DNA of 6,769 nt. Origin: a virus (Duplodnaviria; Heunggongvirae; Uroviricota; Caudoviricetes). A program made the position numbers and the translations under genes. Each line of letters begins with the position of its first letter. Within the stretch, counting starts at the first letter, position 1. Of the stretch, positions 1-5,081 are shown one piece after another. Below the pieces are notes generated by a model. That model did not search any database. It was not told the DNA's origin and saw nothing but the letters and a program-made list of their open reading frames with translations. The DNA is taken from IMG/VR virus record IMGVR_UViG_2681813261_000024; one strand, written 5' to 3'.

Positions 1-33
1 CCTCAAAAACACCATCATACACTAAATCAGTAA

Positions 34-546
34 GTTGGCAGCATCACCGGGGGCGCAGACCCTGATTATGTTATCTGGGCGAAAGAAGTTCAGGGTATTA
101 ACCGTGCATGGACTTTCAGACACTGGAAAGGCACTGGAACGGTTGGCGTGATGGTGGCGACAAACGATCCGGAACGCCCGGCCCCGGATGAAAGCGTGAT
201 TAACGCAGTCAGGGACCACATCCTTCCTCTGGCACCTGTTGCCGGAAGCGGATTGTATGTATTCGGTGCCACAGAAAAAGTCATCCCGATGACGATTGCA
301 TTATCGAAAGACACACCGCAGATCAGGACTGCAATAAAAGCAGAGCTGAATGCACTGATGTTACGGGATGGTGTGCCAGAGGGGCGTATGTATCTGTCCA
401 GAATCAGTGAGGCCATCAGTTTGTCTGCTGGTGAAGTGGCCCACCGGTTAATCGTCCCTTCATCGGATATTGACCTGGGGGAGACCGAGCTTCCGGTGCT
501 CGGCGAGATCACCTGGCAGGCTTATGACCCGGCAAGGAGTAAATAA
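34..546 (+). CDS. Baseplate J-like protein (Mu gp47 / P2 gpJ family), C-terminal portion only; 5' end truncated or disrupted
   Basis: Frame-1 translation from nt 34 (VGSITGGADPDYVIWAKEVQGINRAWTF...) shows the GG..DY..WA..V.G..RAW motif typical of baseplate J proteins, recalled from memory. The first in-frame start is GTG 148, an in-frame TAA lies at 31-33, and the other two forward frames stop at 23-25 and 63-65. The stop TAA 544-546 overlaps the ATG of the next gene (TAATG), suggesting translational coupling. Confidence 0.6.
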   Translation, partial: VGSITGGADPDYVIWAKEVQGINRAWTFRHWKGTGTVGVMVATNDPERPAPDESVINAVRDHILPLAPVAGSGLYVFGATEKVIPMTIALSKDTPQIRTAIKAELNALMLRDGVPEGRMYLSRISEAISLSAGEVAHRLIVPSSDIDLGETELPVLGEITWQAYDPARSK

Positions 547-1136
547 TGGATTCGTTACAGGATGATTATACAAAGCTGCTGTACGGACTGATGCCGCCGG
601 GGCCTGCATGGTCAGATACCGACGGTGTACTTGACGGTCTGGCACCATCGCTTGTGCGTGTTCACCAGCGGGCTGATGAACTGGTGATTGAAATCGATCC
701 CGGTCAGTCCACAGAGCTGATTGAACGTTATGAAGAATTGTATGGTTTACCTGATTCCTGTTCCCCTGTCGGAACCCAGACATTACGCCAGCGTCAGCAA
801 CGTCTTGAAGCAAAAGCCAATGTGGCTGGTGGCATAAATGAGCAGTTCTTCCTGGATCAGCTTGAGGCGCTGGGATATACCGGCGTAACGATCGAACAGT
901 TCCAGCACTTGGATGCAAGCCCCGATCCGGAATGGGGAGATCGCTGGCGTTATTTCTGGCGTGTGACGTTGCCGATGGATGCCGGTGCTCAGTGGCAGAC
1001 ATGCACGGACGCCTGCAACACACCGATCCGGACGTGGGGGGATACGGTTGCGGAGTGCGTGATTAATAAATTATGTCCGTCACACACCGTCGTTTTATTT
1101 TCCTATCCAGATGAGGATGAAGATGCACAGGATTGA
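546..1136 (+). CDS. Phage baseplate/tail protein, Mu gp48 / e14 YmfQ-like (DUF2313 family, distant P2 gpI analogue)
   Basis: 196-aa ORF with an LMPPGPAW N-terminal motif and a GG....FF...LEALGY.....IEQF central motif resembling the YmfQ/gp48 family (from memory). It sits between the J-like gene and the tail fibre as in Mu-like baseplate modules, with a 1-nt start/stop overlap upstream. Confidence 0.65.
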   Translation: MDSLQDDYTKLLYGLMPPGPAWSDTDGVLDGLAPSLVRVHQRADELVIEIDPGQSTELIERYEELYGLPDSCSPVGTQTLRQRQQRLEAKANVAGGINEQFFLDQLEALGYTGVTIEQFQHLDASPDPEWGDRWRYFWRVTLPMDAGAQWQTCTDACNTPIRTWGDTVAECVINKLCPSHTVVLFSYPDEDEDAQD

Positions 1137-2163
1137 TACGCTGACTGCGGTAAAAGATAAGTTTGGTCCGGGTAAGAACGGATTTACTGACGGAAATCTT
1201 CGCACAGGACGTCTTGCTACCTGGCTGAACAGTGCCATGTGGAATGCCATTCAGGAGGAAATCTGTGGTGTCATTGAGAAGGCCGGGATAGAACTGAATA
1301 AAGAAGAACACGACCAGCTATATAAGGCTATATTATTGCTGGTGGGCGGTGCAATTAACGAAGAGGCATTGCTGATAAAAAATAACCTTTCGGATGTGGA
1401 AGACAGGGATGAGGCTGTTGAAAACCTCGGATTAAAACCCACGGTGGATAAGGCAAAAAATGCCGTTCAGCGTGATGGCGACACCATGACCGGAGAGCTG
1501 AAAATCCGTGGTGTTAATGCGCTGAGGATTTTCAACGAAGCTTTTGGCCTGATTTTTCGTCGTTCGGAAGAGTGCCTGCACCTTATTCCCACCAGTGAAG
1601 GTCAGGGGGAAAATGGCGATATTGGTCCCCTGCGCCCGTTCACCATTAATCTGCGGACGGGTGAAATATCCATGTCGCATAAAGTGTCTGTTGGCGGTGG
1701 TTCGCAGGTCAATGGTGCGCTGGGTATCGGCGTTCAGAACGCCCTGGGGGGGAATTCAATTGTTCTTGGTGATAATGACACCGGATTCAAACAGAATGGT
1801 GATGGCCTGCTGGATGTTTATGCCAATAGCGTGCATGTGTTGCGTTTTCAGAGTGGCAGTATCCAGAGTAATAAAGCTGTAAACGTTACAGGACGGGTAA
1901 CACCGTCAGACTACGGAAACTTTGATGCCCGTTACCAGCAGCGAAATGGTGGCGTGCAGGATGTGCGGTATGGTTATGAAATGTATTACACCCCCGGCAG
2001 TAACACCGTTTCGTGGACATTTCGCTCACCTTCGGGACACGGGCTGTCAGGGATATCGATATCGGATACCGGCCGTAACTCAGCGGATAACGTCAACGGC
2101 GTGTATTACCGACCGCTGCAAAAACTGATTAATGGCACCTGGTATAACGTAGCGAGTATTTAA
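1111..2163 (+). CDS. Tail fibre protein; C-terminal part resembles the P2 gpH receptor-binding region, with a distinct ~110-aa N-terminal anchoring domain
   Basis: 350-aa ORF. The C-terminus (NALGGNSIVLGDNDTGFKQNGDGLLDVYANS ... LINGTWYNVASI) closely matches the recalled P2 gpH C-terminus (NALGGSSIVLGDNDTGFKQNGDGILDVYANS ... INGTWYNVAQV). Start is ambiguous among ATG 1111, 1117 and 1123; 1123 has the best AGGA spacing. It overlaps the end of the upstream gene. Confidence 0.8.
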   Translation: MRMKMHRIDTLTAVKDKFGPGKNGFTDGNLRTGRLATWLNSAMWNAIQEEICGVIEKAGIELNKEEHDQLYKAILLLVGGAINEEALLIKNNLSDVEDRDEAVENLGLKPTVDKAKNAVQRDGDTMTGELKIRGVNALRIFNEAFGLIFRRSEECLHLIPTSEGQGENGDIGPLRPFTINLRTGEISMSHKVSVGGGSQVNGALGIGVQNALGGNSIVLGDNDTGFKQNGDGLLDVYANSVHVLRFQSGSIQSNKAVNVTGRVTPSDYGNFDARYQQRNGGVQDVRYGYEMYYTPGSNTVSWTFRSPSGHGLSGISISDTGRNSADNVNGVYYRPLQKLINGTWYNVASI

Positions 2164-2165
2164 CA

Positions 2166-2711
2166 ATGTTGCATTTAAAAAATATTACGGCAGGTAATCC
2201 GAAAACCGCGGAATAATATCAGCTGACAAAACAGTATGATGTCACCTGGCTTTTTTCGGAAGACGGCAAAAACTGGTATGAAGAACAGAAGAACTTTGCC
2301 AGTGACACCATAAAAATGGTTTACACCGGAGACGGGCGCGTGGTGTGGGTCGGTAAGGATGTGACAGGCATTGAACCCCGTAACGCCAGTGTTATTGAAG
2401 TTCCTGATATTACCGCCAACCGCCGCATTACCGCGCCGGGTTACTGGTTTTACCGCAATGATGAATTTGTCTTTGACTACAGACTCAAAGCGGAAGATGA
2501 GCGTGATGCCCTTCTGGCTCAGGTCAGTGCCCGGACAGGGGAATGGGAAGAAGACCTGCTGCTGGGGCTAATCAGCGACGAAGACCGGGAAAAACTGAAA
2601 GCGTACCGTATTTACGCGAAATCGCTGCAGGCGATGGATTTCAGCACCATCACTGATAAATCCTCATATAACGCCATTGAATGGTCCGTCTCTCCGGAAG
2701 GTTCTTCCTGA
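2166..2711 (+). pseudogene. Tail fibre assembly protein (P2 gpG / Mu gpU family) interrupted by an in-frame TAA at 2214-2216; the longest intact ORF is 2316-2711
   Basis: Translation from ATG 2166 reads [43 protein letters not shown]..., colinear with the recalled P2 gpG N-terminus ([22 protein letters not shown]...DGKNWYEE). The stop replaces the conserved Gln (CAA to TAA). The same frame continues to TGA 2709-2711, and VEVPDITANRR plus a Tfa-like C-terminus are present. Confidence 0.7.
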
Positions 2712-2734
2712 TTTAATTTATCGCGAGAAAAACT

Positions 2735-4003
2735 ATGTCTGTAGTGATATCAGGTGCGCTGACTGATGGCGCAGGCATCCCCATGTCCGGATGCCAGATT
2801 ATTCTGAAATCCCGTGTAAACACCTCAGAAGTGGTGATGCGTACCAGGGCTGATGTAGTGACCGGAAATAACGGTGAATATTCGTTTGAGGCACAGGTCG
2901 GAAAATATTGCGTGTATCTGAAACGGGACTGGCGCGACGAGTACTGTGTTGGCGACATTGCTGTATACGACGACTCAAAGCCCGGCACGCTGAATGACTT
3001 TCTGATTGCTCCTGATGAGGGCGACCTGAAACCGGATGTCGTCAAACGCTTTGAGGAAATGGTGGCGCAGGCGCAGCAGAGCGCCGGGGCCGCAGCCGGA
3101 AACGCACAGCAGACGGCGCAGGATGTGGCGGCAGCCGCAGGTTATGCCCGCGCAGCAGAGCAGGCCAAAAATGACATTGATGCTGCGCTGACCGGCACTC
3201 TGAAAACGGCTAACCATCTGTCTGAAATCGCAGCAGCAGGCGAAAAGGCACAACAGAAGTCCCGGGATAATCTGGGGCTGAAAAGTGCGGCCACGATGGA
3301 AGCACAGAGCGACATTTACGACCGGACAAAAGGCCGTCTGGCGATACCCGGCGCATTCGGCTTTGGGTGTGCTTTTCTGCCTGAAGATGTTATCCGTTTT
3401 GACACTAAGAGTGATTTCCTGGCCTGGGTAAGGAATGCGCTGCCAGGTGAATATTCCGTTGCTGGCCCCTACGACATCATCATACCCGACACACGGTTTG
3501 AAGGGGTGCTCAGCATCCGGTGGACTGATGCACGCCCTGAGACAACAGAACCGAGGTACAGAGCCAAATCCCTTACTTTTTACGGCATTAACGGCCCCAT
3601 TTATCACACCCGCTACTGCTACTGGCCCATATCCAGACTGACTGGCTGGGTGAAAATAAATATAACCACAGAAGATATTATTTACAGAATCGTGGCGAGC
3701 TCTGTCTGCAACAGATGGGGAGACCCTGACATTGGCGGGCTGATTATTGCTGCGTACCAGGGAGAAGCTGACGGTGATAAAGTCATCAGACTTGTCAGGG
3801 GGCAGTCATACAGAGGCTCACGACTGGGACCGGTGGGGATTTCAGTGCCCAGTACTCCCACCGGAACGTATATAGCATCCCCACAATTTTTCATTACGGG
3901 ATGTTCAGAGCATTCATTACCGGGGTCATATAGCGCCCTGTCCGGGGTGCCGGATGCTCATGTCTCTGGCGCAATGCCCGGGCTTTTTATTCGCACATCG
4001 TGA
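2735..4003 (+). CDS. Side tail fibre protein with lambda Stf-like N-terminal domain, Ala/Gln-rich shaft and unrecognised C-terminal domain
   Basis: 422-aa ORF. The N-terminus (MSVVISGALTDGAGIPMSGCQIILKSR...GEYSF...GKYCVYL...IAVYDDSKPGTLNDFLIA) follows the lambda Stf / StfR pattern (MAVKISGVLKDG...CTIQLKA...VYEDSQPGTLNDFL, from memory). An Ala/Gln-rich low-complexity stretch follows, then a C-terminal ~230 aa with no family I recognise. Confidence 0.75.
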   Translation: MSVVISGALTDGAGIPMSGCQIILKSRVNTSEVVMRTRADVVTGNNGEYSFEAQVGKYCVYLKRDWRDEYCVGDIAVYDDSKPGTLNDFLIAPDEGDLKPDVVKRFEEMVAQAQQSAGAAAGNAQQTAQDVAAAAGYARAAEQAKNDIDAALTGTLKTANHLSEIAAAGEKAQQKSRDNLGLKSAATMEAQSDIYDRTKGRLAIPGAFGFGCAFLPEDVIRFDTKSDFLAWVRNALPGEYSVAGPYDIIIPDTRFEGVLSIRWTDARPETTEPRYRAKSLTFYGINGPIYHTRYCYWPISRLTGWVKINITTEDIIYRIVASSVCNRWGDPDIGGLIIAAYQGEADGDKVIRLVRGQSYRGSRLGPVGISVPSTPTGTYIASPQFFITGCSEHSLPGSYSALSGVPDAHVSGAMPGLFIRTS

Positions 4004-4013
4004 GGAATGCACC

Positions 4014-4520
4014 GTGGAAATTAAAAAAATCATTAATCCCCGTTATACCGAAAGTGGCGCAGTAGACTGTGACGTTTTTTTTGACGACAGGGACCAGGCA
4101 GTCCCCTACACAGCCACCGCTGATGATGTCGCACCGACGGGTCAGCGAATCTGGCAGGAACTGCAAAGTGGCAAATGGGGTGAGATAGCCCCATTCACTG
4201 TGACACCAGAAATGCTGGAAGCGGCCAGAGAGGCCAGACGTCAGGAAATTGAAGCATGGCGCACAGAACAGGAGGCGAAGCCGTTCACGTTTGAATGGAA
4301 CGGTCGTATCTGGAATGCTGGCCCCNNNNNNNNNNNNNNNNNNGATGCCGATAATCAGCAGGTGAAACTGTCGATGCCGGAACTGGAAGAACTGGCGGCA
4401 GCAATGGTGCAGGCGCAGGTCGATCGCAACGATGAGATTTATCGCCGTCAGCGTGAAATGAAAGAGGAGCTGAGTGGTCTGGAGGATTTGGGAACAATTA
4501 GAGCGTTTGATGTTACGTAA
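4014..4520 (+). CDS. Putative tail fibre assembly/chaperone protein (non-canonical); contains an 18-N gap
   Basis: The ORF lies immediately downstream of the fibre gene in the same frame as track ORF 3954-4520. GTG 4014 is preceded by GAGGA (4002-4006) and avoids a 50-nt overlap, so it is my preferred start; ATG 3954 and 3960 are alternatives. The assignment is positional, since the sequence lacks the classic Tfa C-terminal motif. Confidence 0.45.
   Translation: MEIKKIINPRYTESGAVDCDVFFDDRDQAVPYTATADDVAPTGQRIWQELQSGKWGEIAPFTVTPEMLEAAREARRQEIEAWRTEQEAKPFTFEWNGRIWNAGPXXXXXXDADNQQVKLSMPELEELAAAMVQAQVDRNDEIYRRQREMKEELSGLEDLGTIRAFDVT
4326..4343. other. Run of 18 ambiguous bases (N), an assembly gap or masked bases inside the putative chaperone gene
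   Basis: Directly visible as n x18; the length is a multiple of 3 so the frame is preserved and the track shows XXXXXX. Confidence 0.95.
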
Positions 4521-4566
4521 TTGGTAAGCTGCATCGTGTTAAATTGTTACCCTTATTTACAACTAG

Positions 4567-4600
4567 AAAAGCCTCTGACTTCATAATCAGAGGCTTTTTT
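4567..4600. terminator. Bidirectional rho-independent terminator between the phage tail operon (+) and ssrA (-)
   Basis: AAAA, then GCCTCTGA (4571-4578), loop CTTCATAA, TCAGAGGC (4587-4594), then TTTTTT (4595-4600): a perfect 8-bp stem flanked by an A-run and a T-run, so it can act on either strand. Confidence 0.6.
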
Positions 4601-4718
4601 GAAATGCACGTGCATTTTGCGTGTATATTTTTGTCTTTTTCTGGTCCGCTTACTGTCTGGTCAGTGTCCGTAAGTGACTGTTTTTATAGTCTCTGTCCGG
4701 TTGCAGTCCTGTCAAAAG

Positions 4719-5081
4719 TGGTGGAGCTGGCGGGAGTTGAACCCGCGTCCGAAATTCCTACATCCTCGGTACTACATGCTTAGTCAGTCTTTACATTCGC
4801 TTGCCAGCTGCGGACGGACACGCCACTAACAAACTAGCCTGATTAAGTTTTAACGCTTCAACCCCAGGCAGGGCTTCCACGCGATCTCTTTTGGGTTTGA
4901 CCTCTCTTGATCCCCGTCCTAAGAGCGGAGGCTAGGGAGAGAGGGCTCTAAGCAGGTTATTAAGCTGCTAAAGCGTAGTTTTCGTCGTTTGCGACTATTT
5001 TTTGCGGCTTTTTACGAGGCCAACCGCCCCTCGGCATGCACCTTGGGTTTCGCAAATCCCGTCGAATCCAGAATCAGCCCC
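4719..5081 (-). ncRNA. ssrA: tmRNA (SsrA, 10Sa RNA), 363 nt, apparently identical to the E. coli sequence
   Basis: The reverse complement begins GGGGCTGATTCTGGATTCGACGGGATTTGCGAAACCCAAGG and ends GGACGCGGGTTCAACTCCCGCCAGCTCCACCA. It contains the tag reading frame GCAAACGACGAAAACTACGCTTTAGCAGCTTAA (ANDENYALAA*), seen on the + strand as its complement at 4961-4993. Confidence 0.95.

Follow-up and report, generated by a model that had tools for sequence, protein, structure and literature searches.

Why does a single phage tail operon carry two fibre genes with different N-terminal anchoring domains, each followed by a chaperone gene of a different family? This question is raised by a stretch of 6,769 nucleotides from a Caudoviricetes virus (IMG/VR record IMGVR_UViG_2681813261_000024), hereafter called the window, in which the original prediction had recognized two tandem fibre and chaperone cassettes and had argued that, since the N-terminal domain determines the virion to which a fibre attaches, two different N-termini imply modular capture from another phage lineage. 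We consider it highly probable that positions 1123-4520 are the late-operon end of a phiP27-like phage, encoding two fibres for one virion, each with its own chaperone, and that the module is inactive in this copy. Sequence homology, a shared order of genes, their conservation, selection of the purifying kind and the decayed state of this copy are directly observed.

The gene string was established from six-frame open reading frames (ORFs), ARAGORN, and Pfam and PHROG scans of the window, and it comprises four tandem, co-oriented ORFs whose family assignments agree with the predicted cassettes. Fibre 1 (1123-2163, + strand; longest ORF from 1111) lies directly after a baseplate wedge gene, the stop codon of which its ORF overlaps by 14 nucleotides, and is a sequence homologue of Mu S and P2 H (PHROG 6859, tail fibre, E = 1.6e-209). 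Its C-terminal part is indeed of the P2 gpH type, with residues 99-346 aligning to gpH residues 376-669 at 33% identity (E = 3e-30) and also to Mu S (5yvq_A, E = 2.5e-25), and its N-terminus is Mu S-like (PDB 8ju3, E = 7e-9). The start is most likely ATG 1123 and not 1111, since homologues are called as proteins of 346 residues and the PHROG alignment begins at residue 5. As the first ~120 residues of fibre 1 track the wedge protein gp48, it is best regarded as a baseplate fibre. It is followed by chaperone 1, a Tfa of the Mu U/P2 G type (2166-2711, + strand; Caudo_TAP, PF02413, E = 7.3e-21), which starts at ATG 2166 and is a pseudogene carrying an in-frame TAA at 2214-2216; the ORF 2316-2711 is merely what remains after this codon. 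An intact homologue matches Mu U (5yvq_B, E = 9e-39) and P2 gpG (41% identity, E = 1e-47), so that the earlier description of a gpG-type and broken chaperone holds. Hence, as in the S/U pair of Mu and the H/G pair of P2, homologous fibre and chaperone genes directly follow the gp48/gpI wedge gene; unlike in these phages, there is no invertible G-type segment, fibre 1 has 346 residues (504 in Mu S and 669 in P2 H) and an intact Caudo_TAP chaperone is lacking. Invertible switching of the Mu G-segment type, or repeat-based switching, was considered and rejected: the four genes are co-oriented, without inverted S'/U' copies and without an invertase, inverted repeats are weak and at chance level only, and no recombinase ORF occurs among the window ORFs.

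Fibre 2 (2735-4003, + strand) has 422 residues and carries the Pfam domain PF08400, 'prophage tail fibre N-terminal', over residues 1-131 (E = 2.4e-63). Residues 1-92 match the N-domain of the Ur-lambda side fibre Stf (9e7m_Ta, E = 4.6e-17) and residues 1-198 match gp40, the collar spike of the Vibrio myophage XM1 (PDB 7kjk_A3, E = 1.1e-6). The protein can be divided into a collar (residues 1 to ~95), an Ala/Gln coiled-coil shaft (~100-180) and a C-domain (~215-422), in agreement with the Stf-type N-domain and Ala/Gln shaft that had been read from the letters. An AlphaFold2 model built from 32 sequences predicts helices at 100-126 and 135-179 in the Ala/Gln-rich shaft, with a mean predicted local distance difference test score (pLDDT) of 63.6, made up of ~80 for the N-domain, below 50 for the shaft and 66-91 for the C-domain. 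In a Foldseek search of the PDB with this model, only Ur-lambda Stf (template modelling score 0.84, root-mean-square deviation 2.3 Å, 46% identity) and XM1 gp40 (E = 7.3e-7) were retrieved at E ≤ 0.001, the C-domain giving no PDB match. Matches in BFVD include fibres of sipho-, myo- and podoviruses and are driven by the N-domain and shaft, so that the N-domain looks like a general ring-binding adaptor. Two precedents are informative in this respect. In Ur-lambda, twelve copies of the Stf N-domain (StfN) form a collar around the gpV/gpM ring junction from which four trimeric fibres emerge (PMC12617516), and in XM1 six gp40 trimers (18 copies) sit on the neck proteins gp4 and gp5 through an N-domain of ~100 residues (PMC10457771). 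Fibre 2 shares with Ur-lambda Stf the PF08400 collar, the coiled-coil shaft and the downstream chaperone gene, whereas the lambda tail is non-contractile (J, V, M), its docking site is the gpV/gpM junction and its chaperone is a Tfa of the Caudo_TAP family; in the present case, a contractile tail is combined with a chaperone belonging to DUF4376. With XM1 gp40 it shares a homologous N-domain and Ala/Gln-rich shaft on a contractile-tailed phage, although gp40 has 839 residues and is bound to gp4 and gp5, while the site used by fibre 2 can be proposed by analogy.

The gene following fibre 2 (4014-4520, + strand; longest ORF from 3954) encodes a protein with the DUF4376 domain (PF14301, E = 6.7e-8 for the window ORF and 8.2e-17 for an unmasked homologue). 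It most likely starts at GTG 4014, 10 nucleotides after the fibre 2 stop codon and behind a GAGGA motif at 4002-4006; the alternative ATG at 3954 would overlap fibre 2 by 50 nucleotides. The run of 18 N at 4326-4343 corresponds to 75 nucleotides (coding DSLGRLSPVVMLAKSVTAQTHMAWG) in otherwise identical chromosomes, and this gap is thus not length-preserving. Because the N run is shorter than 75 nucleotides, the ORF as read is 19 codons too short, and PF14301 lies in a ~190-residue protein encoded directly after its fibre, in line with the homologues listed, which have mostly 187-193 residues. Active fibres of the Alteromonas myophage V22, and likewise those of Campylobacter CJIE1 prophages, require proteins of this family, and for phage A5 a transient capping of the fibres by such proteins has been proposed (PMC7289586, PMC7882524, PMC10579305). 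Like V22 gp27 and the A5 and CJIE1 chaperones, the present protein has a C-terminal DUF4376 domain and its gene is immediately downstream of a fibre gene, but the relation is at the family level only, the partner fibres are unrelated and a function here would follow from the family. By family and position, we infer that it is probably the chaperone of fibre 2. The second chaperone is atypical, as had been noted: BLASTP between Tfa and the DUF4376 protein returned chance matches only, and the two families look distinct at the sequence level. We did not follow PMC7882524 in assigning DUF4376 to Mu U (TfaMu), as the Mu U homologue of the window scores as Caudo_TAP (PF02413) only and has no similarity to the DUF4376 protein. 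A division of DUF4376 into a variable N-terminal half and a conserved C-terminal half, considered for pairing with the fibre tip, gave 67-73% versus 59-81% identity, that is no clear contrast.

Is the presence of both cassettes peculiar to this prophage? The phiP27 genome (NC_003356) matches window positions 49-4490 in megablast and blastn searches (49-1967 at 93% identity, then in later segments), with the genes L52-L57 in the same order, namely J/gp47, gp48, fibre, Tfa, StfN-type fibre and DUF4376. The two-cassette arrangement is thus the family norm and already known, its genes being annotated in phiP27. In this phage, genes L54-L57 correspond to the four genes considered here, in the same order after J/gp48, with identities of 98% for gp48, 89% for the collar and 69-79% for DUF4376, whereas other alleles are present for the C-terminus of fibre 1 and for the C-domain of fibre 2 (the latter with 28% identity), Tfa and J are complete, and the integration features are its own 11-bp attL/attR without an ssrA junction. 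The same module is found at ssrA in E. coli C311, and the Tfa-to-StfN junction (window 2316-3100) is covered to 80% or more in at least 88 of 5,426 complete E. coli genomes. Among 27 IMG/VR contigs with a gp48 97-100% identical to that of the window, 15 carry all four genes, 5 end inside fibre 2, 5 end earlier and 2 are exceptions, one with an IpaH-like E3 ligase gene (L020) and the other a truncated prophage; all four genes are consequently present in 15 of the 17 close relatives whose contigs are long enough. The original prediction had named standard co-occurrence of both fibres, with conserved synteny, in one well-characterized phage family as the finding that would speak against it. Co-occurrence and synteny are what phiP27, these IMG/VR contigs and the E. 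coli genomes display, though phiP27 is structurally uncharacterized.

Nor is the set of four genes tied to one baseplate. Fibre, Caudo_TAP chaperone, StfN-type fibre and DUF4376 also occur behind other baseplates, in pPE4 and in Salmonella and Yersinia prophages. In the latter two, J/gp48-type baseplate genes are only ~30% identical and both cassettes are present with other genes between them: a hexapeptide acetyltransferase and an ORF without assignment in Salmonella (L067 7650-8956, - strand), and a family-2 glycosyltransferase in Yersinia (L069 7737-8738, + strand), which may represent surface-modification cargo.

A comparison of related prophages had also been suggested, to see whether cassette 2 is an insertion with its own boundaries, and this did not prove to be the case. 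In a sister group of 14 contigs with a gp48 93% identical to that of the window (L043-L056), fibre 2 is absent, and 7 of the 14 retain, directly after Tfa, some or all of the 37-38 codons at the 3' end of DUF4376, codons 1-149 being gone. In one of them (L044, 4960-5131), the junction joins window 2563-2776 to 4404-4490 across ~11 nucleotides of microhomology. The absent state is hence a microhomology deletion scar, implying that this lineage had cassette 2 ancestrally and that its absence is due to a later loss. In the same sister group, gp48 is lengthened to 319 residues with a repeat-rich tail, and an extra ORF of 349 residues without Pfam match precedes fibre 1 (e.g., L049 8001-10033). In several complete E. 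coli genomes, the gene next to Tfa on its 3' side is annotated as a 'DUF4376 domain-containing protein', which is probably a deletion-scar fusion as in the IMG/VR contigs.

These comparisons bear on a reading close to the original one, in which a lambdoid siphovirus is the fairly recent source of cassette 2, so that its N-domain fits another virion and fibre 2 would not belong on this tail. In its favour, the N-domain is a homologue of that of lambda Stf (45-46% identity), lambdoid phages or other siphoviruses account for nearly all of the 311 phage records in which this domain occurs, and the next, more distant baseplate relatives, ST64B (gp48 70% identical) and SfV (gp48 57% identical), have fibre and Tfa only. 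Against a recent arrival, however, stand the conserved synteny and an absent state which is a deletion scar and not an empty site, as well as the substitution pattern: the ratio of nonsynonymous to synonymous changes (dN/dS) for StfN is 0.12-0.13 at a dS of ~0.45-0.50, in comparison with phiP27, C311 and pPE4. In the same comparison, dN/dS is 0.09-0.29 for DUF4376. For the C-domain of fibre 2, divergence has left an identity of 27-37%. Such a combination of conserved anchor and chaperone with a tip that diversifies is what marks a functional receptor-binding protein.

The collar was compared among local sequences and the 11 loci obtained by a scan of genome contigs with shaft motifs, a scan in which taxonomic breadth is under-sampled. 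Its first 100 residues are 67-100% identical between contractile-tail contexts and 43-48% identical to those of loci behind a lambda J-type gene. The contractile-type collar was found only with contractile-tail genes, the loci coming from three genera and involving baseplates of three types. It is still 73-77% identical in Salmonella and Yersinia, where fibre 1 is a Collar-domain fibre and Tfa is lambda-like. Conversely, in S. flexneri lambda-J-type prophages the last ~120 fibre residues are 97% and DUF4376 95% identical to those of the window, with a collar at only 47-48%. This sharing had counted for the capture from a siphovirus, but what is common to siphovirus-type prophages is the tip and the chaperone and not the anchor, which belongs to a separate subtype occurring only with contractile-tail genes. 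We therefore regard a recent capture of the whole cassette as very unlikely. The idea of modular exchange survives for the tip and DUF4376, which are exchanged with lambdoid prophages, and falls for the anchor, which is not of the lambda lineage. In S. flexneri SFBU1023 and in 'E. coli' ECMA0423 (L060-L070), five loci each carry this fibre type, of which two in each genome are behind a lambda-J-type gene and combine a sipho-type collar with the same distal tip and DUF4376, suggesting that prophages residing in one genome exchange their tips.

Regarding the particle, both fibres most likely belong to the same virion, two N-termini corresponding to two attachment sites. Fibre 1, folded by the Mu U/P2 G-type Tfa, would be located on the baseplate, while the ~95-residue beta-sandwich collar of fibre 2 would clamp a hexameric ring of the same contractile tail, from which the coiled coil and a variable C-terminal receptor-binding domain would extend; DUF4376 would be translationally coupled to fibre 2 and fold it. 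A contractile tail is in keeping with the sheath gene of phiP27 and with the Mu-type baseplate genes upstream in the window. As for the ring, XM1 is the only solved precedent on a contractile tail and the neck is hence the best guess; by this analogy, we give a collar located at the neck, as in XM1, a little short of an even chance.

Several observations weigh against this reading of fibre 2. The heads, necks, sheaths, tubes and baseplates of phiP27 and pPE4 have no tblastx similarity, yet their collars are 99-100% identical, a situation difficult to reconcile with one specific docking partner. The collar type hence does not covary with the sequence of any tail protein, which neither backs the neck as the docking site nor points to another. 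Searching PDB sequences with the phiP27 neck proteins L42 and L43 returned nothing related to XM1, and a Pfam scan of the ORFs in the pPE4 neck region nothing useful. The tube of a contractile tail is covered by the sheath, and the lambda docking site is thus not directly transferable. With 422 residues, fibre 2 is short for a neck fibre reaching the cell surface. Moreover, neither its C-domain nor the DUF4376 model (mean pLDDT 84.7) has solved structural relatives in the PDB, the latter giving no Foldseek match at E ≤ 0.001. For pPE4, two readings remain, either docking on a structural feature common to rings or a partner inside the module.

The second of these corresponds to a branched fibre, with fibre 2 docking on fibre 1, or on a Tfa kept at the tip of fibre 1, and not on a tail ring. 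Since phiP27 and pPE4 share only their lysis genes and the fibre module, the sole conserved candidate partner is inside the module, and the Tfa of Mu, according to a cited paper, does stay bound to its fibre. The Salmonella and Yersinia prophages argue otherwise, as their fibre 1 and Tfa are of other types and the cassettes are separated while the collar is still 73-77% identical, and both solved homologues encircle hexameric rings. A branched fibre is accordingly unlikely, and attachment of fibre 2 to a ring of the contractile tail is preferred.

Could cassette 2 instead be a non-structural passenger of the variable right end of the prophage, without any role in the virion? In two relatives, the place 3' of the fibre genes is taken by cargo encoding type III effectors. 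An IpaH-like LRR-NEL E3 ligase takes the place of cassette 2 after Tfa in the IMG/VR locus L020 (10389-12689, - strand), and in the FDAARGOS_944 chromosome a frameshifted ipaHe follows DUF4376 (L003 8874-10515, - strand), beside an intact two-cassette copy which is 98% identical. Deletion of cassette 2 in one sublineage would also be compatible with a dispensable passenger. Nevertheless, cassette 2 lies inside the late operon, upstream of its terminator and without a promoter of its own. Indeed, no sigma-70-like promoter site was detected in window 900-4800, where 4.3 are expected, so that an internal promoter for cassette 2 was rejected, and a strong hairpin with a U tract, the likely terminator of the late (tail) operon, follows DUF4376 (4564-4601, + strand; RNA fold -20.6 kcal/mol, z = -6.7); together, these features make the four genes the end of one late operon. 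Adding the purifying selection on anchor and chaperone, the C-domain at 27-37% identity, which is a typical receptor-binding pattern, and homologues that are proven virion fibres, a passenger without virion function is the least credible of the explanations, and we give it hardly any weight.

If both fibres are working virion parts in the family, what of this copy? The original prediction had proposed that cassette 2 may be the functional host-range determinant now that chaperone 1 is broken, and this does not stand. Eight NCBI chromosomes match the window at 99.7-100%, and in all of them the baseplate gene J is split by an IS1 of 768 bp with a 9-bp target duplication (GGGGGCGCA; window 1-57; L007 6536-7303). 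In the window itself, positions 1-48 (unstranded) are the IS1 terminal inverted repeat, which is matched at 100% by the ends of IS1 in P1 and in further records, the IS1 body lying to the left of the window. The 3' part of the J/Mu gp47-type gene follows (49-546, + strand; Pfam Baseplate_J, E = 3e-8; PHROG 1608, E = 1.1e-40; collinear with phiP27 L52), and then the wedge gene of the Mu gp48/YmfQ type (546-1136, + strand; PF10076, E = 2.3e-25; 98% identity to phiP27 L53). Removal of the IS1 in silico restores a J ORF of 360 residues. As J is interrupted in every identical chromosome, this prophage cannot build a tail, and neither cassette can then determine the host range. In at least five of the eight chromosomes, namely those with IS1 ORFs called at that place, the tape-measure gene is followed by a second IS1. 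The defect of chaperone 1 is a single nonsense mutation and not a frameshift: codon 17 (2214-2216) is TAA in all eight chromosomes and CAA in the 98%-identical FDAARGOS_944 prophage. The genes of the module persist only as cargo in decay and, possibly, as a source of recombination for other prophages. Locus L007 also has an 11-nucleotide gap relative to the window within window 1-4325, its position being read by eye only.

The sequence comparisons identify the host chromosome as Shigella sonnei-type, with a phiP27-like prophage of Mu-type contractile tail integrated at ssrA. Proteins named S. sonnei are found in one chromosome whose match to the window is 99.5-99.9% as far as the ssrA junction, and close homologues come from sources named Shigella sonnei, flexneri, boydii and dysenteriae. 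Blocks of public assemblies in which the exact fibre 2 protein is indexed number 723. Upstream in the identical chromosomes, the genes are of the Mu type too (tape measure, DNA circularization protein, hub, gp45 and gp46). On the other side, ssrA (transfer-messenger RNA, ARAGORN; 4719-5081, - strand) is the integration target, with its 3' end toward the prophage and the same layout in E. coli C311; beyond it lie smpB on the same (-) strand, then ratA and yfjF on the + strand. In two loci of S. sonnei-type chromosomes (L008 and L012), the match to the window stops at 4756, 38 nucleotides into ssrA, and from locus position 12081 (window 4757) other genes follow, an integrase of 391 residues and further phage-like genes in place of smpB, which suggests a second element in tandem at ssrA. 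The 114 nucleotides between terminator and ssrA (window 4605-4718) are 91% identical to the extreme end of the Cronobacter phage phiES15 (39861-39974), which may reflect att-adjacent sequence shared by ssrA-integrating phages.

For this record, the analysis provides a corrected annotation, including gene starts, the nonsense codon, the IS1 in J and the masked stretch of 75 nucleotides. More generally, the inference rule by which two fibre N-termini in one operon are taken as two virions should be mended, as they rather point to two attachment sites on one particle. By analogy with XM1, we tentatively propose, with somewhat less than even confidence, that the contractile-type Stf collar is a portable ring clamp which mounts a cassette of tip and DUF4376 on contractile tails unrelated in sequence, probably at the neck. 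The finding that the collar follows the tail type while tip and chaperone are swapped could guide fibre engineering and cryo-electron microscopy of phiP27-like phages. If the proposal is true, phiP27-like, pPE4-like, Salmonella and Yersinia prophages would gain a second, independently swappable receptor specificity, and a collar of ~95 residues alone would encode compatibility with the tail type, leaving tips and chaperones to move freely between siphovirus- and myovirus-type prophages within one genome.

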